64,000 nt of DNA from assembly GCA_026023565.1 (NCBI GenBank), contig JAPETS010000044.1, forward strand, positions 1-64,000. Reading direction: 5' to 3'. Made by a program: the position numbers and the translations under genes. Source of the stretch: Cirrosporium novae-zelandiae. Lineage: Eukaryota. Shown piece by piece: positions 31,269-54,089 of the stretch. Positions within the stretch are counted from its first letter, which is position 1. Every line of letters starts with the position of its first letter. The notes under the pieces are model-generated. The model saw only the letters and a list, made by a program, of their open reading frames with translations, was not told where the DNA came from and did not search any database.

Positions 31269-31660
31269 ATGAAGACCTTGACCATTTCCGCTGCTGTTGC
31301 ATTCCTCGCCGCCATTGCTTCTGCGGCCCCGGCTCCAGCTCCAGTTCAACGTCGCGATACTGCCTATGCTAGTGTTACGTTTGAGGGCGCACCTCCTGAT
31401 GACGCTTACTTTACCATGTCCATTCCGGTTTACAGTTCTACTTCTATCAGTATGTCAAGAAATTGTGCCTTGTCTACCTCTATCATAAACTAACTATTAT
31501 AATAGCCAACTCCCTCAGCATTTCGCACATTAGCGTCGGAACTGGTGCTGGCTGCTACTTTTCTGGTATCGATGGTGGCTCCACGGTTGTTCATAGTGGT
31601 CAAACTATAGATGTCGGACCTCCCCAGACTCAAGTCTCTGCCTACTGCTGGGAGGAGTAA
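31269..31660 (+). CDS. Small secreted protein (signal peptide, RR processing site, 2 Cys), 2 exons
   Basis: MKTLTISAAVAFLAAIASAAPAPAPVQRR; intron 31450-31505; C-terminus CYFSGIDGG...VGPPQTQVSAYC; TATA-like GATATATAAA near 31123. Confidence 0.85.
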
Positions 31661-31959
31661 ACAGCCATTCATTTACATGGGTGGGTCATGGATACTTTAG
31701 GTCAAGACCTGAGGATGGGAAATGGGCATGGACAAGGCGTGGGATAGCATGGAATTGGGAATTGGACGGAGGGGACAGGAGTAAGGGAAATCATAAGGGG
31801 ATTGAAGTTTATCTTCTAGCCACTCTTTTAACTGTTTAGCTAGCTAGCAATAAGTAATTTCATCCCTCCTCTCAGAAAATATTATCCTTGGTGGATATGT
31901 GGTGTTGTTGATACATAGGTACCGTACCTAGGGAGTTATGATAACTGTGACGGCAAGAA

Positions 31960-32546
31960 ATAGTTCCAGCTCGGACCGACCATTGGTGGATCTGACCGAA
32001 GGTCCGGATATTCGGATATTTCATGGAATCTTGCGGCGTGAGCCGATAAGCTTGTTTTGGTAATACCGTTACCCGATATGGTAACTGTTGTTTGGATAGA
32101 TAACCTTATAGTGGACACCTTCCCCCCCCTAAGCATCCCATTCCATATCTTGAAGTTCCGTATTGCATTTTGTAGTTTTGTTTACTGTTAGTTTCTGCTT
32201 CTGAGTTTATTATCAGGTGCTTGGCCCAATTCTATTCATTTTGCTTTTATCCAGTTGATTCTTAATGTCCAACGTGCAAGCTCTTGGCTCTCGAGATAGG
32301 CCTCTTGGCCTTTGGGAGATAGGCAATTGGCTTTACCGATATCAATAGCTAACTGTTTGACTTATCGCAATATGTAAATTCTTAATGTTTCCCGATCATG
32401 ATATGCTTCTCCGTTTACTCGTGTGGTTGACCTAATGGAACTCCGATATCAAAGAAATGATATCTACTTAACGTGCATCATGTCTCTCACTCTTTACACG
32501 TTCCTTTCCTTGCAGTTGTCACCTAACTCGATCCATATTTTTCGGC
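31960..32546 (+). promoter_or_regulatory. Permease promoter with repeated CCGATA/CGG and GATA elements
   Basis: CCGATA at 32043, 32073, 32336 and 32443; CCGGATATTCGG at 32004; GATAAG at 32045. Confidence 0.4.
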
Positions 32547-34609
32547 ATGGCGAATGTTAAGAGTAACGATATCAAGCCTTCACCCCCTAAGGAGATAGCC
32601 ACCGTTGATGTCGAAGATGGAGAACTCAAGAGCTTGAATATATCTAAGGTCGACGAGGCTGAGATCTTCTTGCGTGAACATGATTATGATTGGGGGCAGG
32701 TCGAAACCTTGCTAAGCGACAAGGCCAAGCTGGGGAAGCTTATCCGCAAAGTTGACTGGATAATAATGCCTCTTCTCTGCGGGACATACTGCCTCCAGTA
32801 TATCGACAAGCAGGCATTATCTTACAGTGCTGTGTTTGATCTGCTTGATGAGACCAATTTGACAGGCGATGAGTATTCATGGCTTGGGAGTATATTTTAT
32901 TTTGGTATGTTTTATCTGGGACTCATTCTAAACCTTGTGTGAAAGAAAAACGAGGGTTTGCGTCGCGCACGATGCTAATTAGATGCTAATTATCTTCAGG
33001 CTATCTCTTCTGGGAGTATCCAGCCAGTTATATTGCCCAGCGTTTTAAGATGGGCAAATTCATTTCCCTAGTAGTGTACGTTCTCTTATAAATCTAGGCC
33101 GACTCGAGTTAGCTGACCTTGGACTAGGGTTCTCTGGGGGGCTGTTTTGATGCTTACCGCCGCGGCACACGACTTTGCAGGACTTGCAGCCTGTCGTTTT
33201 TTTCTGGGATGTCTTGAAGGTTGGCAACGTCACTTTAAATATTATAATATAGCACTGTCTAATCGTTATTCATATAGCGCCCATTACCCCATGTTTCATG
33301 TTGATAGTTGGCGCCTGGTATAGCCGACAGGGCCAACCTGCTCGAGCTGGCTTGTTTTACTGCTTCAACGGCGTTGGAGCAATGATAGGCGGCGTCCTGA
33401 CATATGGTATTGGTCAAGTAGACAACTTCCCAGTCTACCAAGCAATCTACCTCGTCACCGGAGGCTTGACAGTTTTGTGGGGGATACTCTTATTTTGGCG
33501 ACTTCCAGACCACGTTCTAACCACAAAGCTGTTCACCACCGAGGAGAAGCTGATGATTGTTGGAATTGGGAAAAGAAATCAAACTGTAAGCTTCAGTCTT
33601 TCCACAGTATTTATCGTACCTGTCCTCATCCTCTGTGTTTGACCAGGGCTTTTATAACCACCATATCAAACTCTACCAAATTAAAGAGGTATTCATGGAC
33701 CTCCAAGTCTGGATCTGCTTTCTGTTCGCGACGATTAACGAGCTCGTCAATGGAGGTATTGCAAACGTAAGCAAAACAATACCACAACAACAGCAACCTT
33801 TTCACAAAAGACATATCTCCTAACACCCAGAAAATAGTTTGGAAAATTAATCATCAAAGGCATGGTCAACGACCCACTGAAGACGGTTGCCTTGGGAATC
33901 CCCCAAGGAGCATTCACCTTGGTTTATGTATCCACGGGTCCTTGGCTCGCCACCAAGTACAAGAACGCTCGATGCTACATCATGGCGTTATATCTCATCC
34001 CATCAATCATCGGATCAGGCATCCTATGGAAGCTACCGCAATCCAACGAAATCGGAAGATTATTCGGATACTACATTGTAACCCCCCTACCCTCCCCTTC
34101 CCCTCTCAAAAACCCACCCACCCAACTAACCCCCCTCCCCTTCATAGACATCCTCCTACGTCGGCTCCCTAGTAATAGTCCTCCAAATGCCCGCCTGCAA
34201 CCTCCGCGGCTACACCAAACGTGTCACAGGAACCGCCTTCGTATTCCTAGGCTACTGTCTCGGCAACATCATCGGCCCCCACGCCTTCCTCTCCAGCGAA
34301 GCCCCCTATTACCAAACCGGTTGCGAAATGATGATGGCGTGTGCGATTTGTGAACTTGGGTTGGCGGTTATGTTGAGGGTGCTTTTGGTTAGGAGGAATA
34401 GGATTCGGGATCGGAAGAGGGCGGAGATGGAGAGTAATGGAGAGAAGGGGGGGGAGGAAGAGGGGGGGAGGGAGACTTTGCTTGATCAGACGGATTTTGA
34501 GGTATGTGTTTTTCAATTCTGTTTCTTTTTTTTCTTCCAGAGAAAGGAGCAATAAACTAACTTGATATCTACGTGATTCTAGGACGTCAATTTCAGATAT
34601 CAGTACTGA
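32547..34609 (+). CDS. MFS transporter of the allantoate permease (Dal5/ACS) family, multi-exon
   Basis: LIRKVDWIIMPLLCGTYCLQYIDKQALSYSAVF, YSWLGSIFYFG, CRFFLGCLE, NLRGYTKRVT...GYCLGNIIGPHAF, C-terminal LDQTDFE-DVNFRYQY-stop. Confidence 0.92.
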
Positions 34610-34962
34610 AAAAACATGCACGATCACTCAAATCCAACCGATTGCAAAAAAAAACTCCCCAATCAATATCCCGAAACTTATATCCGGGAAACCCCTTTGA
34701 ATGATAAAAATAGGGTCTTTTATATCTATATATAGCTAGCTTAATGGCATTATTATTTTTTATTTCTAGTGAAGGTATGGTGTGCTAATTGAAGGGGAAG
34801 GGGGTGTAGAGGTCGTGGGGTTGTGATGGGTAGAGTAAAATGTTGGAGAATTCGAGTCGTAAATAAATAGATGAAATAAAACAAAAGACTATAAGTTCTA
34901 CTAAGTAATCCCGGCACAGTCATGACTTTATCCTAATACCGATGGTATCCGCTCAAGTAACG

Positions 34963-35021
34963 GAGTGGGGTGGAGTTGATGTGGAGTGGAGTTGATGTGG
35001 AGTGGAGTGGAGTGGAGTGGG
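34963..35021. repeat. (GTGGA)n-type pentanucleotide microsatellite
   Basis: GGAGTGGGGTGGAGTTGATGTGGAGTGGAGTTGATGTGGAGTGGAGTGGAGTGGAGTGG. Confidence 0.8.
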
Positions 35022-35221
35022 ATACACCATGCATGGGTGTTTTTTTTGTTGTGGCTTGGCTGGGTAGTTAGGTAATTAGGTACCTAGATAGATAAGAATG
35101 GTTAGCTTTCCTTCTAACAACTAATAAATATAAGCCTTGAAGATTTTATATTTTTATATATATATTTTTTGTTCTTCTATTATCCAACCAGCCCTCCCCC
35201 CTCCCCCCCCTCACATATCAT

Positions 35222-36361
35222 TCAAAAAACACTAGCATAAGAATTCAACGCCAACTGCCCCCCCAAATGGGCATAAAGCACACAACTCCCCTCTTCAAAT
35301 TCTTTTTTGCGCGCCATATCCACCATCCCCGCAAGACTCTTCCCCTCATAAACCGGATCCGTGATAAACGCTTCTGTTGCCGCTCCATAGCGAATCGCAT
35401 CCAGTGTGCGCTGATCCGGAACCCCGTAGCAGCCCGCATGGTATCTGGGATCTAGAACTATATCTTCTAATGTTATAGCGTCGGCGCCCAGGCCGATCAT
35501 CTCGGCAGTTTGTTTGGCGAGTCTCAAAACTGTTTGGCGGGTTTCTTCAGGGCGGCCGGAGGCGTCTATGCCGATGACCTTGCGTTTGCGTTGATTGGGG
35601 AGGGTTTCGAGGAGCTTGAAGCCGGCGACTATCCCCGCCATGGTGGAGCCCGTGACGGCGCAGACGATGATGTGGGTGAAGAATATGTTTAGGGATTTTT
35701 CTTGGGCGGCGGTTTCGAAGGCCCAGCGGGCGAAGCCGAGGCCGCCGAGCGGGTGGTCCGAGGCTCCCGCTGGGATTAGGTAGGGGGTGTGGCCTGCGGA
35801 GGTGATGGAGGCGCAGATGGAGGCGAGGCGGTCTTGGTCGTTTTTGTGCTCGAAGGCTGTGGGGGTTGTGCCGTCGGTTACGAGGGTAGGTTGTTTGTTG
35901 TTGTTGTTGGCGGTGGATGCGGGGGCGATGGGAGCCCCGATGGTGATGTGTGCGGCCATGAGGTTTGAGAGTTGCAGGTTTGCCACCTTATCGTACATCG
36001 GGGCGTCGTCCCCGGGCACCCAGTGTTCCTGGAGGAGAGAGCATGCGAGGCCGAATTTCGCGGCTACGGCTGCGACCTGGCGCGTGTGGTTGGATTGGAT
36101 CCCGCCCACGCTGACGAGGGTGTCTGCTTTTTTGGAGAGGGCGTCGGCGATTAGGTATTCGAGTTTTCGGACCTTGTTGCCCCCGAAGGCGAGGCCGGAG
36201 TTGCAGTCTTCGCGTTTGGCGTAGATTTGAATGGTTTGGCTGCTGGCTTTGCTTAGGTCGGAACTCATGCGCGGGAGGTGCTGGATTGGGGAGGGGCCGA
36301 ATAGGAGGGGGGTGCGTGAGATGGAGGCGAAGGGTTCGGGGAGGGTTATGGTGTCTGCCAT
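35222..36361 (-). CDS. acdS: 1-aminocyclopropane-1-carboxylate (ACC) deaminase, PLP-dependent, intronless
   Basis: YAKREDCNSGLAFGGNKVRKLEY (PLP Lys), GGIQSNHTRQVAA, PYLIPAGASDHPLGGLGF, CAVTGSTMAG, FITDPVYEGKS and YAHLGG. The Glu of YEG and the Leu of HLGG are the residues reported to separate ACC deaminase from D-cysteine desulfhydrase. Confidence 0.95.
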   Translation of the reverse strand: MADTITLPEPFASISRTPLLFGPSPIQHLPRMSSDLSKASSQTIQIYAKREDCNSGLAFGGNKVRKLEYLIADALSKKADTLVSVGGIQSNHTRQVAAVAAKFGLACSLLQEHWVPGDDAPMYDKVANLQLSNLMAAHITIGAPIAPASTANNNNKQPTLVTDGTTPTAFEHKNDQDRLASICASITSAGHTPYLIPAGASDHPLGGLGFARWAFETAAQEKSLNIFFTHIIVCAVTGSTMAGIVAGFKLLETLPNQRKRKVIGIDASGRPEETRQTVLRLAKQTAEMIGLGADAITLEDIVLDPRYHAGCYGVPDQRTLDAIRYGAATEAFITDPVYEGKSLAGMVDMARKKEFEEGSCVLYAHLGGQLALNSYASVF

Positions 36362-36940
36362 TGTTGGGTATTGTGTGGTTTCTTTTGGTTGTTTTTTTTC
36401 TTTCTTTCTTTTTCTTTTTTTCTTTCTGCTGATGGGATGAGATTGAGGTGTGAGTATTTAATATGATATATATATCGAGACAGAGAATCAGAGAAGGAAA
36501 CGTTAACGGGGAAAAGAAATGACAAGCTCTAGCTAGCTAGCTTGACAAAATAGAAATGTCTTGTGACTTATAAATCTGTGTCGGGAAGGGGAAAAAAAGG
36601 AAAATTAGACAAGGATGATCACATCAGCCTGAGTGGTATTGCGGCATTCGGAATTGACATATAATTGTTGGAAGGATTGGTTATTAGACAACACCATTGA
36701 AGTCGACGGAGACGATGATTGTGGTGGAGAAGTTTGGCTGTTGTCGGAAAAGTTGGTTTGACTAACGGAAACTTTGTGCGTTGACCTTTTCCCGATATTC
36801 GGCCACGTCGGGGAACTTTGAGAGATAGATAAGATAGCGACTCCTTGGTATCTTGTCGTCTTTTCCGTCGGCTGCGTTTTCCCATCAACATCAATGGTGA
36901 TCCTCTTTCCACATCAATTGTTGTTATTGATTTTCCAATA

Positions 36941-39568
36941 ATGACCGAGGAAGTGGATAGGCGTTGGGAATCTTCCCCGTCGGCTACCGCTCGTCCCTAC
37001 AGGTCTCATCGAATCCCAGCCTGCGATTTTTGCCGTCATCGCAAAAGCCGATGTACTCAAGATGCTGCTCATGGGTCATGCATGCTCTGTATGCTTCATG
37101 GCGTAGAATGCTCAAGAGATGGTGTCCAGAGGAGCAGGACTAATCCCCCAGCATCCTCACCTAGAGGGAGAGCACCCAGACAACCCAAAAGACAGCGGAC
37201 TGCATCTCCGAACCGTCGTGATGTCGCCCCAATTATTGATATTTCAAGTCCCCATTCGGGACTAGAGGTAGTCAGACAAGCAAGCATACAGTCGGGAAGT
37301 GCGCATTCAGGTCCAGAGTCTCAGGCATTACCTCCTCAGTCAGCACACATAATTGGTCCAGCTATAGCACGCGACGTCCAGGTTCTAGAACGTTATATGT
37401 CTCCAAAGTACAATCTTGCCGAGTCTCATGTACGGCCTAATCCCTACAATGTTTATTCGGACGACCCCACGGACCCCGTCGTGTATATGAAGGTTCCCCG
37501 GCAACGGGTTGTTCTACCATCGGGAAACGGGTCTCCAGCCTTTAAACAGCTGGAGATTTTGGACAAGGTCTTCGAACCGCATTCTGAAGAGCTATTCAGT
37601 GTGTAAGTCTCCACAACTGGAGACTTCCAGCGTATGTCAAAATGCTGAACTACCTGTTAAAGCTATCTGGAGAGGATTCACCCCAGTTTTCCTGTCCTGG
37701 ACGTGAAGACGGCGAGCGAAGCGTATCGTCACAATGGACTCCCCAACGCTCTCGTGTGTGAAATTTATGCCGTCTCACTCATCTCCTGGAACACGTCCGC
37801 CAAGTTAGTAGCCTCAGGCCGCTCGCGACCCGATGTTCGCTTCATTTGGAATCTTACAGTGAGCGCTTTGCATGAAGACTTTCTAACACCGAGTCTTTCT
37901 ACTATTCTCGCGTCCATTCTGGACCTTATGGGAAGACCAATTACGTCCATTACCTATAATGCGGTTAACCTTGGTCGTACCGTCGCGCTCTCCCATAGCT
38001 TGGGATTGAATCGCAACCCGTCGACATGGAGACTCGATCAACGTCAGATAGGTCTTCGAATTCGAACGTGGTGGGCTATCTTGATTCATGACCGCTGGTA
38101 AGGGATCTTAGATCTTACCCCTTTAAATACACCATGTCCCAATGAAGAGTTTGACTCCTAACAAATAATTTCAGGGCAAGCCTTGCTCACGGAACACCCC
38201 CTCACATACACCGTGAACAATATGATGTCCCTCTTCCAGGTCTAGACATCTTGGTTGAAAAGCCCTCTGAAGACACCGTCGAGACTGGCTCACAAGACCG
38301 TCGTAGGGGAGCTCACTGCTTCATCGCTCTCTGCCAATTAACCGAGATCCTAGGAGAGGTTCTGCATCTAATGTACAACCTCCAGATACCAAACGGGACC
38401 GCTCGTTTGAAATCCATTAGGCGATTCGAAACCCACCTCGATGAATGGGAAGACTCCCTTCCCTCGTGGCTTAATCCCATCGAATCCGATTTCGACAGGC
38501 TAGCTCCCGGCGCGAGAAGCTTGCAGCTTTCTTTTTATGCCCTGAAGATGTGTCTTTCCAGAGCTGCTTTACATGTTAGTCATCTATTTGCCTCGTATTT
38601 AGCTACGATCTGTGTTTTTGACTTTATCTGGCGTTGTGCGCAAATAGGAGTTTACTCGATCAGGAGAAGCCGATGATATTGCCGCACGGCTATATCACCA
38701 ATCCAGGTGTCAGAAGGCGGCACGGGTCGTCGTAGATTTTGTCGTTTCGCTTCAAGCCGATGACCTGGATGTATTTTGGCTCCCTTGTAAGTCCCTACCC
38801 TCAATCCATCCCCCTCGTAATCTTGTAAAAAAATGGTCCCCCCTAACTAACCCCCCCATTTAAATAGACAGCGCCTACCACTTCACCTCTGCCACAACCC
38901 TAACCCTGCGCTGCGCACTCGAAGCCGAGAACGACGACACAGCCCGCGAGTGCATCACCAATGCCAAAGACCTCATCAACCGCCTTCGCTCCGCCAAAGA
39001 CAACCAGGGTTGGGATCTCGCTGAGATCTGCCTTGCGCAGTGCGAAGCCGTAGTCAATCAGATGTGGGATGGGGGCCTGCCTTCTAAGAAGTTAAATGGT
39101 TCTTCTTATCGCCAGAGCCAGAGCCAGAGCCGGCAGTTGGGGAATAGTGGCGGGAGGGGTAGTGTGGATGGGAATTTGAGAGAAGCGAGTTGTCATACCC
39201 ATGTTGTGAATGGCGGTAGTAATGGTAATTCTACCACCCGCCAAATGAGTTTCAGTCCAGATATCATCCACACCCATACCCGCCGACAACATCCTCATCC
39301 TCATCACCCCGAAGCCACACCAACACAACCAGCACCAGACGAAACCGTCCTCAGCATGATGAACGCCACAATCCCTCCTCCTAGTAACAACAACAACAAC
39401 AACACCAGTACTTTCGACATGACTGGTAGTAGTAATGATACTCGGTTATTTGGTGGTACCGCTGGAGCCAACAACAACAACAATAACAACAACAATATCG
39501 CCACTCTCAGCGAATCTTTTCCAAACTTATGGGATACATTTAGTTTAGATCGATATGGGACTTTTTAA
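36941..39568 (+). CDS. Zn(II)2Cys6 transcription factor with fungal-specific TF domain, multi-exon
   Basis: CDFCRHRKSRC...CMLCMLHGVEC; YLERIHPSFPVLD; SHSLGLNRNP...RIRTWWAILIHDRW; transcribed divergently from acdS. Confidence 0.92.
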
Positions 39569-40827: not shown

Positions 40828-42797
40828 TTAGTCTTTGATCTCCCTGGTGGAAGTAACAATGATATTTTGTTCCTCCTCCTCATCCTCTTCTTTAATCGTA
40901 CTAATGGCCTTCGTCGTCTGCCCCGTGTCTTTTTCCTTCGGTGAAACGTCTCCCTCATCTCTCTCCTGTCCTAGCTCGTGTACTTTGCCCCTCAGCTTCC
41001 TAGCAACATGATCCGTCATTAGATGCGCAATATCTTTGCTGAAAAGAGCTGCTACCAGTGCTAGGCCTCCAAACGCGATACTGGCCAAATAAACTGTTCG
41101 GAATGCTTGCGCGTATGCCGTCTTAACCGCCAGGTCGACGGCAGAAATAATCTGGGACGTGATTCCAGGGACGGAGGTCAAGGATGATGGTGAAGGTGTT
41201 CCTGCTGCTGCTGTGAGGGCTTTTAATAGGGTGGGGATCTCGGATCCGGGGAGGCCGGCGGATAGGGCCGCGGGGATTATGTTGGAAGGAATGGTGGTTC
41301 CCAAACGGTTTGTGAGGATGGACATGTAGATGGTGGTGGCAATGCAGCCGGAGACTTGGCGTAAGGAGCCGAGGAGTCCGCAAGCGAGGCCGATGTCACT
41401 GGGTGAGCAGACTAGACCGGCTATGACAATGGTGATGAATTCGAGGTAGCCGACGCCAAAGCAGGCGAGGATAGTGAATGCCAGGGCGAGAGGTTTCGTG
41501 TCTGCTGTTGCGGCTGCCATGCCGCCGACAAAAGAGGTATAAAGGAGGCAGCAGGCGATGAGTTGCCACTTTGCATGTCCGAGGCGCTTGAAAATTACTC
41601 CTGCCGTTACTCCGCCGGCTACAGTGGCAGCGGGGGGAGCGCAGGACAACCAGCCAATCTCGATGTTGTCGGTGCTGTAGAGGACTGCGATCTGCTGCGG
41701 CCAGAGGATTGCCGAGGAGTAGTATATCATTGCTCCGACGCACGCGCTGATTGTTATAGAGTTGTAGTTAGTGATTCTGAATAATTTCATTGGGATCAAG
41801 GGCTGTGGGAGTGTAACGCATGTCTCATAGAAAATGAGAGCGACCAAGGCGATGAAGCCTACGACAAGAGGCACGAGTACCGAACTAGAGGCCCATGGGT
41901 AGGCCGAGCCACCCCACGAAAGGCCAAGAAGTACGAGTGTCAAACCACCTGAATATAAAACTAGCCCAACGTAGTCGAGTTTTTTCAGTTCTGCTCGTTT
42001 GGAGGTGTTCGGGGTTAGCTGGTTGAAATTTGGTGGGAAGTAGAATAACCCAAAGAGAATAACAGAAATGCCGCAGGTTATGGCCTCGAGGTAGTAATAC
42101 CATCTCCAGCCTAGCTTTGTATTCGAGACCAACAATCGAGCAGCAGCAGGTCCCATTGACATGAGTGGAACCGTTGAGGCAAATAACCCAGCATTGGCAT
42201 AAGCCCTATCTCGATTTGGCACCAATTCCTGAACCACAAAAGTAAAAGTTAACTGCACTGCAGCGGCAATACCGATAATGACCGTGCCTGCGATTAGGAT
42301 ATTGATGGTATTTGCTGTTGCGCAGATTAGAGAACCAACAAAGCCTAGGATCTGGCCTCCAATCAAAAAATACCGACGGCCCAAGATGTCACCAAGGCGA
42401 CCGACGAGGGCAAGGCCAACGCCACTGGAAAGGGTAAAGGCGGTCGATATAAAGAGGTAGTTGGGACTGGGGCCTATTCGTGGTCCAGTGTCATCAAAAG
42501 CTAAAGCTAGATATAGGTAAATGGAACAAACCTATATCCTCATTTATGATGATAAAGGCATTCGCCTAGCAAATTTGGTCAATGAAAGCCCGTCGACGAT
42601 AACAGAAATCCCAAATAGCATACTGGAAGCATGAATCCAATATATAAGCTATTGGTAAGCAATATAATAGCAATATAGCTGCCGATGAATCTGGGAGAGC
42701 AGTAATAACCACTGGGAAGATCTTTCAGGTGGCCACCAACAGTGGTATTAGTAGTATCGTATACCTCGACTGTCGTTGTCAACTTTTCTGGATTCAT
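40828..42797 (-). CDS. MFS efflux pump, trichothecene efflux (TRI12)-like, 3 exons
   Basis: Exon 1 LPSGYYCSPRFIGSY; micro-exon ANAFIIINEDI; then GPSPNY...VGRLGDILGRRYF, ELVPNRDR, WRWYYY, YFPP, AYAQAFRTVYLASIAFG, MTDHVARKL. Confidence 0.9.
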
Positions 42798-49046: not shown

Positions 49047-51259
49047 ATGGACGAAACCATAATGAACAGTCGGAACGGCGGTCGAGCATGCCGGAGGTGT
49101 GCAACAGCCAAGACCAAATGTGTTTACCCAAACACCTACACCAGCCCCATCGGTCAATGTGAACGGTATGCAATGCTTATCACCACTTTTAGAATTCAGC
49201 CAAGGACTCTCTTTAACATTATTCTTACTGCAGATGTCGTCGATTGAAGAAAGAGTGTGTTATCCGACCCGTGGTCCCTCATAAGCGGAAACCTCCCAAG
49301 ACGTTTGTTACCCCAACTCCGGTGACATCACAGATATCAACTAACCTCTGGAATCACTCTAGACGTGTCGCACAGCTGGAGCAGAAGCTCGATGGCATAG
49401 TAAATCTGCTTACATCCTCACAAGCATCGCGGGGGACCTCTTCACCTGGCGAAACCATATCCCTCTGTTCAAATCCACTTCCATCAAATAGTTTCCATCC
49501 CGTAACCCCTCAACTCAGCGACAATGGCTCTCTTCCAGATCCTGATGTCGATCCCGAATATGAGGAGGTCCTTTTTAATCTGTACCAAGCCAATATGGCC
49601 GGATATTTCCCGTTTGTCGTCATACCCCCAGACACAACTGCTAAGAACCTAAAAAGCCAGAAGCCATTCCTACTCAAAGCAATTATTATGGTGGCTTCTT
49701 ATCAAGATCCAGCGAAACAGACGGCCCTCGGAAAAGGCATCATGGAATATCTGAGTGTGCATATGTTATTACAAGGGGAGAAAAGCCTAGATTTATTGCA
49801 GGGTCTGCTTGTATACATTGCATGGTCAGTTTTACCCAGCTTGTGGAAATTCATTCAGTATCAAATTGCCAATATTGCCCGATCCACTAGCATATACCTA
49901 TCCATATTTTGTGGGTTTGCTTTTCATTCAATCGCTTACTTTGGGTTGCCCTAGGTATCACTATTCGTGGCATCCTAATTATCAAATGACCAATTTACTG
50001 CAACTTGCAGTCGCACTATTAGTCGATTTGCGATTAAATAAACCACCCGGGGGGATCGAAAGATACAAGATGATGATTGAGACCATGCGAGCCGCATATG
50101 GAGACGCAACAGCTTCGGAACCTCACACGCTTGAAGAACGGAGGGCCCTTTTGGGCTGCTTCTATCTGACTTCAATGTACGTTCTTCATCCTTTCAACTC
50201 TTTTGGACAAAACAAATCTATTGATGGATATTTGAATGAGAGAACTGTGTATGTTTTGTGCTTGAAGTTGATGTCTGAGTTCAGTTGCATGGGATTTATA
50301 CTTACAACCTCCCTAGGGTATCAGCAACCATCCGAAAGCTAGATGCTTTACGGTTCACGTCGTATATGGATGAAGGTTGTCGGACCTTACTTGAGGCTGG
50401 GGAATATCCAAGCGACACCTATCTAACGCATTTGGTAAATTTACAGAAGACAGTAGAGAGAATCAGCGAGAGCCCTCTTCATAGCGAAGCTGATTCTTCT
50501 TCAAATCGCAAGCCTCCTGTTGGCATGTATGTGAAAGGGGTTCAGGAGGAAATGACCCGGTTTAAGGACTCTCTTCCTCCCGAGCTTCAACAAAGCCGTG
50601 AGTACCTCCCTAAACCGACTTTGGAGGAATGCTTACTTATTGTGGTATTAGCCTTGGTTCTGTTGTATTATTATAGCGCACAAATTCGTCTCTACGAAGT
50701 TGGTGTATACGATTCACCAAAGCACATATACTACGGCAATTATCCCTTTGGGCATTTAGAAATCCTCTACTCCTGCATTATGGCTGTTAAAGATTTGCTT
50801 GACACGTATTACTCTATCCCCCCCGCGTCATATTTCGGGTTTCCATTCTACACATGGCTACAGCTAGGTCATGCACTCATAGTGCTGTCCAGGCTCTCTC
50901 TTTTTCAATGTGACGGCTGGGATCTAAGACATATTAAGACTATAGTAGACTTCTCAGAGGCAATTGACAGGGTGGCTACTCAGTTTGAAGAAGCTCGGGA
51001 GTTTTATCGTGTCAATGAGCTATCAGGAGAATCGGAAGACATTTTATCCAAGTTTTCGCGAAAGCTGCGGCGAGTCAAAGGATGGTTCGAAGCAAAGTTG
51101 GCTACAGAGTTGGGCCCAGAGATACCTCCACAACCACAGAGTTTGGTAACACCTCCAGCAACGGAAGAGCTGATTGACGAGTCTCTCTTTGAACAGCTAG
51201 ACAGTTCCTTTTGGGATGAGATAATGGGGAGCTGGCCTTTTATACCACCAATCCAATAA
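49047..51259 (+). CDS. Zn(II)2Cys6 transcription factor, multi-exon
   Basis: CRRCATAKTKC...CER-CRRLKKEC; RVAQLEQKLDGIVNLL; YFPFVVIP...KPFLLKAI; EKSLDLLQGLLVYIAW; EERRALLGCFYLTS. Confidence 0.9.
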
Positions 51260-51824: not shown

Positions 51825-54089
51825 ATGCCTCCATCCCTTCCTCCTTCTATACGTCGATTGCTTGACCATGATCAAAAGAAGACTTCACCCAGCAACAAGG
51901 CCTCGATCGAGAAGCAAAGAAAAAATTCATCGGAGCCTAGTACTCCTTCTTCGGAGCAGGAAATAATAAACCAACAACTAAACAACGATACCACAACTAC
52001 AAATTCAGATACTGCCAATGGCAATAATGACACCACTACAGACCCTACTACAGACCCTACTACAGAAGAGCAAGATGACTCCAAAGTCCTCAGAGGCTTC
52101 AAGTTATACATCGTATTCTTTGCAACAATCCTTGCAATCTTCTTGATGTCTCTTAATGGGACTATTGTTTCTACCGTACGTTTTGTCCTACCCCCGTGAA
52201 GTGTTGGTTCTAAGACTTACACGTTATGGAAATAGGCCATCCCACGAATAACGAGTCATTTCGATTCTATTGCTGATATTGGATGGTATGGGTGTGCTTA
52301 TCTGCTTTCGAAGTAAGTCTTGACCCCCCCCCCCCGGGTCGTCCGTTATATGTGGAAAGCTAATATGAGGTGTTGTGGTGTGGTGATATAGTTGTGCATT
52401 CCAACCCCTGACAGGGAGAATCTATAGTCTTTTCTCAACAAAGGTTTGTTTGTCTCTTACCAATTCTCTTCCTAGGCAGGAAGCTTGCTCTCTCTCTCTC
52501 TCTCTCTCTCTCCAAAACTTGAAGCGTATCCCCTCCCCATATCCATCAATTAAATCAAACTAACCCCTTTTTTACGTCGTTTTTCCATCTAGTGGACATT
52601 TATAATCTTTATCATCGTCTTCGAGCTAGGCTCCCTCCTATGCGCCGCTGCCACATCCTCAAACATGTTCATTATCGGCCGTGCTGTCGTAGGACTCGGC
52701 GGATCGGGTCTTTATAATGGCGCCCTCACTGTCATTGCGGCTACCACACCACGCGAACAACGGCCCGCGGTGCTAGGATTTGGCATGTCCATGTCCGGCA
52801 TCGCCTCGGTTGCGGGACCCCTGATCGGGGGTGCGCTCACGGAACACGCATCTTGGAGATGGTGCTTTTATATCAATTTACCCCTGGGGGGAATGACGGC
52901 GCTCCTGCTGTCGACCCTGGGAATCCCAGAACAGATGGCGAAGACGAAAATCAAGTCCATCTGGGAGTTGTTTGACAGATTGGATATGGTGGGGTTCATT
53001 CTGTTTGCGCCCGCGTGCATCATGCTGCTCCTGGCGGTCGAGTGGGGCGGTGTCAAGTACGCCTGGTCGTCGTCGCGCGTCATCGGGCTCATCTGTGGTG
53101 CCGTGGGCACGGTTGTCGTCTTTGGGTTCTGGGAGCATAGGAGGGGGAATGAGGCCATGATTCCTTTGCCCATGCTCAAGAAACCGATCATGTTCTTTAG
53201 CTGCGCGACGGCTTTTTTTCAGATGGGTTGCTTGATGATGCTGACGTACTACCTGCCGATCTGGTTTCAGGTCATCAAGGATGCGAGCCCGACTATGAGC
53301 GGAGTGATGAACTTACCCACGATAATAAGCCAGGTCATCAGCGTCATCATCTCTGGACAATTAGGTACGTCAACCTCAACCACAACGCCCCCATACCCGC
53401 CTTACTAACACCCCCCCCCACCAGTTACCCGAATAGGCTACTACACCCCCTTCGCAATTCTCGGCAGCATGCTCACCGCCATCGGCGCCGGCCTCCTCTC
53501 AACCTTCACTCTCACCTCCGGCTCCCCCCAATGGATCGGCTACCAAGTAATAATCGGCGTCGGCCGGGGTCTCGTCCTCCAAATGCCCATCGTCGCCGCC
53601 CAAAACGTGCTCTCCCCCTCCGAAGTCTCCGTCGGATCCGCCCTAATCGCCTTCAACCAATTCTTCGGCGGCGCCCTATTCGTCGGCTTCGCGCAAACGG
53701 TTTTCCAGAACCGGTTGAGGGCCGCGGTGGAGGCCGGGGTGAAGGGGGTTGAGCCGCAGGAGATTATCGATGTCGGGGCTACGAGTGTGAGGGGGTTGTT
53801 CAAGGGGACTGGTTTGTTGCAGGAGGTGTTGAAGGCGTATAATGAGGCGCTGACGCAGACGTTTTATTTGTCGGTGGGGGGGGCTTGTGTGGCGTTTTTG
53901 GCGGCGTGGGGGATGGGGTGGAAGAACATTAAGAAGGGGAAGAAGGTTGCCGAGGGGGGAGATGTGGAGAGTAAGGGGGGGGAGGGGGGAGAGAAGGTGG
54001 AGAAGGAGAAGGAGCAGGAGGAGCGGAAAGCGGAAGGGGATAATAAGGAAAGAGAAAAAGAAAAAGAAAAGGAAATGGAAATGGTATAA
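51825..54089 (+). CDS. MFS drug:H+ antiporter (DHA2, 14-TM; GliA/AflT-like toxin efflux pump), multi-exon
   Basis: FLMSLNGTIVST-AIPRITSHF...IGWYG; FIIGRAVVGLGGSG; GPLIGGALTEHASWRWCFYINLPLGG; YYLPIWFQVIK; WGMGWKNIK. Confidence 0.92.
52487..52512. repeat. (CT)n microsatellite in an MFS intron
   Basis: Direct read of a CTCTCT run. Confidence 0.85.

Follow-up and report, generated by a model that had tools for sequence, protein, structure and literature searches.

Organization of the locus

The window, i.e., the whole 64-kb stretch of DNA that was analyzed, originates from Cirrosporium novae-zelandiae and harbors a locus composed of genes for a permease, an ACC deaminase and a Zn2Cys6 transcription factor (TF). 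The following features were delineated, with the positions of the two multi-exon genes being taken from an exon map onto the window:

31700-32546, no strand: permease upstream region with candidate cis-elements
32547-34609, plus strand: ACS/Dal5-family MFS permease (P0202, locus tag M1834_006876), 8 exons, 524 aa
34610-35221, no strand: spacer between permease and ACC deaminase, 612 bp, tail to tail
35222-36361, minus strand: ACC deaminase (P0001), single exon in one open frame, 379 aa
36362-36940, no strand: divergent promoter common to ACC deaminase and TF, 579 bp
36941-39568, plus strand: Zn2Cys6 TF (P0121, locus tag M1834_006878), 5 exons, 778 aa

As the ATG of the TF gene (36941) lies 579 bp from the ATG of the deaminase gene (36361), both genes are transcribed divergently. 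The permease gene ends at 34609, 612 bp away from the deaminase stop codon, so that these two genes are positioned tail to tail, and the spacer between them contains no ORF of at least 60 aa that could be assigned to a gene. All three genes are thus present in the order and orientation given in a preliminary description of this DNA (deaminase head-to-head with the TF and tail-to-tail with the permease); the start position of 31960 proposed there falls into the upstream region of the permease, whose ATG is at 32547. That this layout is found again in other genomes shows that it is more than a coincidence. The locus is a conserved catabolic cluster, for which we infer the substrate, the inducer and the targets of the TF.

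Predicted functions of the three proteins

The ACC deaminase exceeded the cut-off of the equivalog model TIGR01274 (EC 3.5.99.7) with 458.6 bits against 392 and matched the solved enzymes from Pseudomonas (PDB 1RQX, E = 8e-104) and Cyberlindnera saturnus (1F2D, E = 2e-86). In an alignment to both, GGNK, GGIQSNH, CYG, VYEGKS and AHLGG are all retained, the latter two within DPVYEGKS and YAHLGGQ, and K63, S90, Y312, Y338, E339 and L366 are invariant among 22 aligned fungal sequences. K63 (GGNK) and S90 (GGIQSNH) align to the solved enzymes, in which the PLP-binding lysine and its neighboring serine are K51 and S78 in Pseudomonas numbering. E295 and L322 are reported to distinguish ACC deaminase from D-cysteine desulfhydrase (PMC4048297), and the window enzyme carries the corresponding residues, with Y338 and E339 in VYEGKS and L366 in AHLGG aligning to 1RQX. 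The earlier assignment, which had been based on the YEG and HLGG residues, was thereby confirmed, and by every sequence criterion tested the enzyme is predicted to be an ACC deaminase. Two other identities were tried and rejected: models for D-cysteine desulfhydrase scored 181–211 bits against cut-offs of 429–610, and the match to the model for CuyA was far under its cut-off.

Characterized ACC deaminases include those from Penicillium citrinum and Trichoderma asperellum as well as Acd2 from F. graminearum (PMC4048297 and PMC6746940). The window enzyme shares the fold family and the catalytic residues with the characterized enzymes from Pseudomonas (1RQX/1TYZ) and C. saturnus (1F2D), but is placed in a fungal clade of its own, the “long” one (SH-like 100). 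Members of this subtype carry a loop insert of ~25 aa, at about residues 142–174 of the window enzyme, and a further insert of 4 aa at the N-terminus. The enzymes from Phlyctema and Coleophoma, with which the window enzyme groups, are likewise in this clade. To our knowledge, no ACC deaminase of the “long” subtype has been assayed.

The permease contains a Pfam MFS_1 domain (106.3 bits against 33.4, residues 78–442). Its top NCBIfam model, ahead by 150 bits, was TIGR00893 (2A0114; ACS family including Dal5), which is matched over positions 3–397 of 399 with a score of 197.4 bits, under the cut-off of 395. The previous designation as a Dal5-type permease holds at the family level only. While this full-length match is a likeness to the yeast Dal5/ACS transporters Dal5p, Yct1p and Seo1p (PMC7617739 and PMC2329640), the permease differs from them in its sub-cut-off score and in forming a sharply bounded orthogroup of its own, the best full-length representative being 55% identical and the next full-length proteins, paralogs, at most 42%.

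The TF exceeded the Pfam cut-offs both for the Zn_clus domain (22.2 against 21 bits) and for the middle homology domain Fungal_trans (PF04082; 82.6 against 23 bits), in line with its initial classification as a Zn2Cys6 factor. The six-cysteine binuclear motif CX2CX6CX8CX2CX6C could be read directly from the protein: CDFCRHRKSRCTQDAAHGSCMLCMLHGVEC.

Candidate cis-elements

The upstream region of the permease contains CCGGATATTCGG at 32004-32015, CCGATAT at 32073, 32336 and 32443, (TAGC)3 at 31837-31848 and eight HGATAR sites, corresponding to 9.4 HGATAR sites per kb compared to 3.5 per kb window-wide. In the divergent promoter, CCGATATTCGG is located at 36792-36802 and (TAGC)3 at 36530-36541, and a tandem of three HGATAR sites spans 36823-36837. 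Across the 64 kb, the exact sequence GATATTCGG is present just twice, with one copy per cluster promoter. As all of these motifs were picked post hoc from the sequence, they are candidates only.

Conservation of the cluster in other fungi

Both proteins, i.e., an ortholog of the TF and an ACC deaminase, could be placed in 17 species including the window itself, with four classes being represented, and in 16 of them the two genes were found at most five gene positions apart or fused. No deaminase sequence was available for eight further species with an orthologous TF, which are therefore not among the 17. Gene order was approximated by the order of accessions or locus tags, with the accession proxy failing for T. 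pinophilus and T. verruculosus. The distance is one position in Phlyctema vagabunda, Coleophoma crateriformis, C. cylindrospora, Xylariales sp. PMI_506 and Xylogone sp. PMI_703, and two to five positions in seven Aspergillus species, Talaromyces verruculosus and “Penicillium occitanis”, while in Thozetella a single gene model fuses the TF with a PALP domain. In the 17th species, TF and deaminase are on contigs of equal length. A paralogous TF group served as control and was located on different contigs from the deaminase in all four species (Helicocarpus, Myotisia, Malbranchea and A. heterothallicus). The window TF falls into a clade of 19 rows (SH-like 100) and groups with the TFs from Phlyctema and Coleophoma (SH-like 99), the same neighbors as in the enzyme tree, with which the TF tree is congruent.

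Among the 887 candidates obtained with the N-terminal exon as query, there was no orthologous TF to accompany the nearest “long” deaminases, those of Phaeomoniella, Rasamsonia and Claussenomyces, and for Onygenales deaminases only the unlinked paralogous TF was found. The deaminase gene of Fusarium verticillioides has another context, beside PDX1/PDX2, which speaks against a universal arrangement. The linkage in 16 of 17 species, compared with the unlinked paralogous TFs, shows that the TF is no chance neighbor of the deaminase and indicates joint inheritance of the two genes throughout Pezizomycotina.

An apparently equivalent block in Aspergillus nidulans has been covered by array data, in which AN8899 (ACC deaminase), AN8900 (lipase), AN8901 (MFS) and AN8902 (Zn2Cys6) rise together (PMC4830055). 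The values for choline minus control, apparently log2, are +3.2, +2.2, +2.8 and +1.3, respectively, and the flanking genes are flat (AN8897 -0.05, AN8898 +0.35, AN8903 +0.33, AN8905 +0.03); the inducing condition was choline in 15-day cultures and not ACC (PMC4830055). Judged only by gene order and annotation, AN8901 and AN8902 would be the orthologs of the window permease and TF. AN8902 is annotated as Zn(II)2Cys6, and a strain over-expressing it exists (PMC12511407).

That the three genes are adjacent by chance, or that the TF serves a neighboring secondary-metabolite cluster, appears hardly credible. SMURF did assign AN8902 to the AN8910 polyketide cluster, but manual curation bounds this cluster at AN8905–AN8910 with AN8902 outside, no PKS or NRPS gene is present in the 64-kb window, and the linkage across four classes contradicts such a reading.

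The linkage of the permease is weaker than that of the TF and the deaminase. The preliminary description had regarded unlinked orthologs in other genomes as evidence against the cluster; this does not apply to TF and deaminase, but outside the window permease and deaminase are linked in only one of three evaluable species. The linked case is the T. amestolkiae permease (BHQ10_009336; 54% identity over the full length), the sole Talaromyces protein among 29 permease matches, which is two locus tags from the deaminase (BHQ10_009334). In the other two species, Exophiala bonariae and, apparently, E. dermatitidis, the permease-like genes and the deaminase gene do not share a contig; orthologs in Cytospora, Fusarium and Aspergillus glaucus come without evidence of a linked deaminase. 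One could therefore argue that the TF-deaminase pair alone is the functional unit, with the loosely associated permease carrying a different organic anion (e.g., a vitamin, dipeptide or sulfur compound) and with ACC entering via general amino-acid permeases. The very diverse substrates of the Dal5 family, in which Yct1p carries cysteine and Seo1p gamma-Glu-Met (PMC7617739), would fit with this. Given the linkage in T. amestolkiae, the MFS gene in the co-induced A. nidulans block and the CCG-N5/6-CGG element common to both window promoters, we nevertheless regard it as unlikely.

A carboxylesterase/lipase gene, which had been missed in the preliminary description, recurs near deaminase and TF in other fungi, for example as AN8900 in A. 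nidulans or as a fused TF+COesterase model in Scytalidium; in Eurotiales, the TF-deaminase unit would also include such a gene. The window of C. novae-zelandiae contains no esterase, lipase or amidase gene. This recurrent neighbor raises the question of whether the substrate is something other than free ACC, namely an ACC conjugate that the linked esterase would release or process (gamma-glutamyl-ACC or malonyl-ACC), or else a D-amino acid or a cyclopropane amino acid bearing substituents, with the “long” subtype of the window being the likeliest to differ. The clade-specific insert and changes (PGDDAP replacing DWED-P) in 10 of the 22 aligned deaminases would be in agreement with this idea, as would the transport of a gamma-glutamyl dipeptide by one Dal5-family member (PMC7617739) and the acceptance of D-serine, D-cysteine and other analogs by ACC deaminases (PMC4048297). 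However, the window deaminase keeps every ACC-specificity residue and passes the TIGR01274 equivalog, its insert is modeled as a surface loop of low confidence (pLDDT of the model, 81.4), and the esterase or amidase is missing from the window, which makes another substrate unlikely.

Proposed mechanism

The best overall explanation, which we hold with slightly more belief than doubt, combines import by the permease, catabolism by the ACC deaminase and activation by the Zn2Cys6 factor with inheritance of the TF-deaminase pair as a unit. The substrate would enter the cell via the proton-coupled ACS/Dal5-family permease, and the cytosolic PLP enzyme, judging from its family membership and conserved catalytic residues, would open the cyclopropane ring to yield 2-oxobutyrate and ammonium. 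The TF may activate the genes for enzyme and permease in response to an inducer, probably by binding CCG/CGG-containing candidate sites such as CCGATATTCGG, once per promoter, alongside candidate sites for GATA factors responding to the nitrogen status. Induction by ACC has been described for the deaminase from P. citrinum (PMC4048297). The interpretation given in the preliminary description, in which the permease imports ACC or an ACC conjugate and the TF is a eukaryotic functional analog of AcdR, is supported in part by these data.

A more specific version, which we propose only tentatively, is a regulon that comprises the genes for the ACC deaminase, the ACS-family permease and the Zn2Cys6 sensor-activator and, as a fourth member in Eurotiales and some Leotiomycetes, one for a secreted carboxylesterase. 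Its genes would be inherited jointly throughout Pezizomycotina and may enable fungi to harvest plant ACC or conjugates such as gamma-glutamyl-ACC.

It would be very unlikely that the module, instead of scavenging ACC from plants, balances the fungus's own ACC and ethylene, as proposed for P. citrinum, with the permease being irrelevant or an exporter. P. citrinum produces ACC, whose intracellular build-up induces its deaminase (PMC4048297), and induction of the A. nidulans block took place in old axenic cultures that contained neither a plant nor added ACC (PMC4830055). Yet, an importer-type symporter and GATA-rich promoters suit nutrient scavenging, and no ACC synthase-like gene is present in the 64-kb window.

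Comparison with known systems and significance

The prn (proline), qut (quinate) and hxn (nicotinate) clusters of A. nidulans each combine a pathway-specific Zn2Cys6 activator with a dedicated permease. The window cluster resembles them in its set of transporter, enzyme and Zn2Cys6 factor, its divergent promoter and its GATA sites suggesting nitrogen control, but differs in its substrate, as far as this can be inferred, and in the orthogroup of its TF.

With the bacterial acdR-acdS system the cluster shares a regulator gene that adjoins the deaminase gene, divergently so in Cirrosporium as well, and a pair that evolves together, as the evolution of acdR and acdS is reported to be coupled (PMC4048297). 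The bacterial regulator is, however, of the Lrp type, whereas the candidate regulator described here is a Zn2Cys6/Fungal_trans protein unrelated to Lrp/AsnC, and the fungal unit additionally includes the permease and, in other fungi, the esterase. The resemblance to AcdR would thus be one of functional analogy only.

ACC is the plant ethylene precursor, and ACC deaminase ranks among the best-studied microbial traits that promote plant growth. A search of open-access papers and preprints found no description of a regulator of a fungal ACC deaminase or of a route for ACC uptake in fungi, which agrees with the earlier statement that no characterized fungal ACC transporter or regulator was known. 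If the regulon reading is true, the TF would be the first eukaryotic ACC-responsive transcription factor, the permease would be the first microbial transporter for ACC (or an ACC conjugate), and AN8899–AN8902 would offer a ready genetic model in A. nidulans. The conserved TF-enzyme pair, the linked permease and the A. nidulans block make ACC sensing and uptake genetically testable, and knowing this regulation would help to predict the plant-responsive ones among the ACC deaminase genes of fungi.

Structure of the cluster and its surroundings

The exon maps of the permease and of the Zn2Cys6 transcription factor (TF), together with the open frame of the ACC deaminase, bear out the order and orientation of the three genes given in the preliminary description:

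32547-34606 plus stop, + strand: permease P0202, 524 aa in 8 exons (database protein mapped onto the DNA; locus tag M1834_006876)
35222-36361, - strand: ACC deaminase P0001, 379 aa, single uninterrupted frame
36941-39565 plus stop, + strand: Zn2Cys6 TF P0121, 778 aa in 5 exons (database protein mapped onto the DNA; locus tag M1834_006878)

The start of the cluster, which had been put at 31960, falls in the upstream region of the permease and has to be moved to 32547. The start codons of the divergent deaminase/TF pair are 579 bp apart, and 612 bp separate the end of the permease from the end of the deaminase. The window is fungal, and the sources of M1834_006878 and M1834_006876 describe both as MAG proteins from Cirrosporium novae-zelandiae (Xylobotryomycetes). 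Upstream, the cluster is preceded by housekeeping genes (importin, Rad54, GGA, mitochondrial carrier). PKS, NRPS or ACC-synthase-like genes were not found in the cluster surroundings within the 64-kb window. According to a competing but unlikely explanation, the cluster would govern the ACC that the fungus makes itself, on the model of Penicillium citrinum (PMC4048297). The following genes were also noted:

31269-31660, + strand: small gene upstream of the permease with a signal-peptide-like N-terminus (MKTLTISAAVAFLAAIASAAP...) and without a family match
40831-42531, - strand: TRI12-like (DHA2-like) MFS efflux pump gene, 1.3 kb past the TF, with no visible tie to the cluster
49217-51256, + strand: gene whose N-terminus is rich in cysteine and which may encode another Zn-cluster factor, without a Pfam match at E 1e-3 or better
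52593-54086, + strand: MFS/TRI12-like transporter gene adjoining the preceding gene, with which it may form a separate TF-transporter pair

The ACC deaminase

P0001 scores 458.6 bits against the curated equivalog TIGR01274 (cut-off 392) and stays far under the cut-offs of the models for D-cysteine desulfhydrase, CuyA and XcbE. Its sequence can be aligned with two ACC deaminases of solved structure, 1RQX from Pseudomonas (E=8e-104) and 1F2D from Cyberlindnera saturnus (E=2e-86). The catalytic residues are in place, with K63 (GGNK), S90 (GGIQSNH), Y312, Y338-E339 (VYEGKS) and L366 (AHLGG) being invariant across 22 aligned fungal homologs. The positions described as diagnostic against D-cysteine desulfhydrase are E295 and L322 (Nascimento et al., PMC4048297).

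In a FastTree phylogeny of 43 chosen rows, P0001 belongs to a "long" clade (SH-like support 100), to which 10 of the 22 sequences in the alignment belong and which is marked by a 4-residue N-terminal insert, PGDDAP replacing DWED-P and an insert of about 25 residues after LSNLMAA. In P0001 the latter lies at residues ~142-174 and is predicted as a low-confidence loop in an AlphaFold model (mean pLDDT 81.4, pTM 0.85). As its second half is conserved throughout the clade (TDG..N.FEHKDDK.RLA), the insert is coding sequence, and an unspliced intron is ruled out. We know of no assayed ACC deaminase from this "long" fungal clade. Two other deaminase models, P0010 from Verticillium longisporum (406 aa) and P0014 from Metarhizium acridum (383 aa), contain an internally duplicated PYYIPAGASDHPLGGLGF segment, reflecting a tandem duplication or else an artefact of annotation.

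Linkage of the Zn2Cys6 factor and the deaminase

P0121 bears a CX2CX6CX8CX2CX6C cluster and a Fungal_trans domain. Its first exon, used as a query against longer proteins, yielded 81 matches in two tiers, of which 37 (all 19 of the top tier and 18 others) were used for a FastTree phylogeny. Group 1 (SH-like 100) comprises 19 rows that are 41-53% identical to the query exon, and the paralogous group 2 (SH-like 100) comprises 15 rows, all from Eurotiomycetes. ESM Atlas names for the TF and the permease were limited to generic Zn2Cys6 and MFS clusters.

Distance in gene positions between group-1 TF and deaminase, with GenBank accession or locus-tag order and contigs of equal size as proxy for position
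1: Phlyctema vagabunda, Coleophoma crateriformis, C. cylindrospora, Xylariales sp. PMI_506, Xylogone sp. PMI_703
2: Talaromyces verruculosus (locus tags)
3: Aspergillus heterothallicus, A. granulosus, 'Penicillium occitanis' (both its records)
4: A. calidoustus, A. germanicus, A. keveii, A. insuetus
5: A. pseudodeflectus
Fused: Thozetella sp. PMI_491 (one 998-aa model with Zn_clus, Fungal_trans and PALP)

By this accession/locus-tag proxy, TF and deaminase are at most five gene positions apart or fused in 16 of 17 evaluable species, the window counted; another eight species possess a group-1 TF but offered no deaminase sequence for comparison and fall outside this number. In the seventeenth, T. 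pinophilus, both genes are on a contig of the same size with non-sequential accessions, and in none of the 17 were they on separate contigs. The group-2 TF, used as a control, was on a different contig from the deaminase in all four species (Helicocarpus griseus, Myotisia sp., Malbranchea cinnamomea, A. heterothallicus). By this proxy the linkage of enzyme and regulator is conserved, which speaks against an adjacency by chance.

The TF-linked enzymes are found in the "long" clade and in a single clade of mixed classes (SH-like 97), with corresponding subclades in the TF tree. As the two trees are congruent, the pair is inherited as a unit. The mixed-class clade spans Leotiomycetes, Sordariomycetes and Eurotiomycetes. 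It fits a transfer between fungal classes, as suggested earlier (PMC4048297), in which case the whole cluster may have moved.

The pairing is not universal. Deaminases of Onygenales are accompanied by the unlinked paralog TF only, and for Phaeomoniella, Rasamsonia and Claussenomyces no group-1 TF was retrieved among the 887 candidates of the one-exon query. In F. verticillioides the deaminase adjoins PDX1/PDX2 (PMC10512309), and a paper on the F. graminearum ACC deaminase does not mention the neighbouring genes. A metagenome scan with the deaminase gave 80 loci (47-57% identity), with the TF in none of them and nothing beyond distant MFS genes (20-28% identity) in two; judged by identity, these loci look mostly bacterial.

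The permease

P0202 matches only MFS_1 in Pfam. Among the NCBIfam models, TIGR00893 (2A0114, anion:cation symporter family) scores far better than any other. As this match runs end to end and yet scores below the cut-off, the designation as a Dal5-type permease is valid at the family level only. In an exhaustive search of 1.84 billion representatives its orthogroup was sharply bounded: the best full-length representative is 55% identical and fragments reach 48-59%, while the next full-length proteins do not exceed 42%.

The permease shares the synteny of the other two genes only in part. In T. amestolkiae, BHQ10_009336 (54% identity over the full length) shares its contig with the deaminase BHQ10_009334, at a distance of two tags, whereas in Exophiala bonariae and E. 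dermatitidis the nearest permease-like proteins, with 50-51% identity, are encoded on contigs that differ in size from that of the deaminase. Linkage outside the window was hence found in one of three evaluable species, and the permease might lie outside the functional unit. Among the species of the ten best permease representatives, only Exophiala dermatitidis also had known deaminase/TF accessions.

An apparent counterpart in Aspergillus nidulans

AN8899 is named as the ACC deaminase of A. nidulans in two papers (PMC4830055, PMC5371717). In the array annotation that supplements PMC4830055, AN8899 is likewise entered as ACC deaminase, AN8900 is an extracellular lipase, AN8901 an MFS transporter and AN8902 a conserved hypothetical protein, the latter being entered as Zn(II)2Cys6 in PMC12511407; an over-expression strain of AN8902 already exists. 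The deaminase-TF distance is three, a value shared with A. heterothallicus and A. granulosus. SMURF had put AN8902 into the AN8910 polyketide cluster; as manual curation bounds this cluster at AN8905-AN8910 (PMC3689640), the reading of the TF as its regulator is rejected.

The intensity sheet of PMC4830055 covers control, choline and [C2mim]Cl with three replicates each (values apparently log2); the stimulus was choline in 15-day cultures and not ACC. Choline minus control was +3.2 for AN8899, +2.2 for AN8900, +2.8 for AN8901 and +1.3 for AN8902, and stayed flat in the flanking genes AN8897 (-0.05), AN8898 (+0.35), AN8903 (+0.33) and AN8905 (+0.03), which shows co-induction of the four-gene block. 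On [C2mim]Cl, AN8899 alone goes up (+0.74). With orthology presumed from gene order and annotation, AN8899-AN8902 is apparently the equivalent of the cluster in the window.

In other fungi, TF and deaminase repeatedly have a COesterase/"extracellular lipase" gene next to them, which in A. nidulans takes part in the co-induction. Scytalidium lignicola P0135 is a fused gene model of group-1 TF and COesterase, and no COesterase/lipase gene was found in the window.

Promoter motifs

In an unbiased k-mer scan of the permease upstream region (31700..32546) and the divergent deaminase/TF promoter (36362..36940) against the rest of the window, (TAGC)n was the top result. The palindromic 12-mer TAGCTAGCTAGC occurs in the 64 kb only at 31837-31848 and 36530-36541 (0.13 expected); it may represent a microsatellite or an element common to both promoters. 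Each promoter also contains one inverted CCG...CGG pair (CCGGATATTCGG at 32004, CCGATATTCGG at 36792) with the 9-mer GATATTCGG in common, which has no other exact copy in the 64 kb. Of the 24 occurrences of CCGATAT/CGGATAT in the window, five fall within the 600 bp that precede the permease. HGATAR occurs eight times in the 847 bp before the permease, compared with 3.5 per kb overall, and three times in tandem in the divergent promoter (36823-36837). As the motifs were picked after inspection of the sequence, they are candidate sites and not evidence of binding.

Proposed mechanism and significance

The permease would import ACC or a near relative, which the PLP enzyme would turn into 2-oxobutyrate and ammonium. 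In the presence of an inducer the Zn2Cys6 factor would activate the deaminase and permease genes from CGG-type sites, and general nitrogen control would overlie this activation. We lean, if only slightly, towards this three-step explanation as a whole. The analysis shows conserved linkage with congruent trees, the family membership and catalytic residues of the proteins, and co-induction of the apparent A. nidulans counterpart; the substrate, its transport, the inducer, the targets of the TF and the orthology of the A. nidulans genes are inferred. As to the imported compound, gamma-glutamyl-ACC is a plant conjugate. The true substrate might instead be such an ACC conjugate or an analogue, in line with a Dal5-family member that carries gamma-Glu-Met (PMC7617739).

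The enzyme family and the transporter/enzyme/Zn2Cys6 layout are already known, and the architecture is unsurprising. No description of a fungal ACC regulator, ACC cluster or ACC transporter was found among about 8.4 million open full-text papers and preprints; the single Zn2Cys6 match (PMC6050962) deals with a protein that is unrelated (E=0.78 to a deaminase). The cluster makes two questions directly testable in a model fungus, namely the regulation of ACC deaminase in fungi and the route of ACC into the cell.
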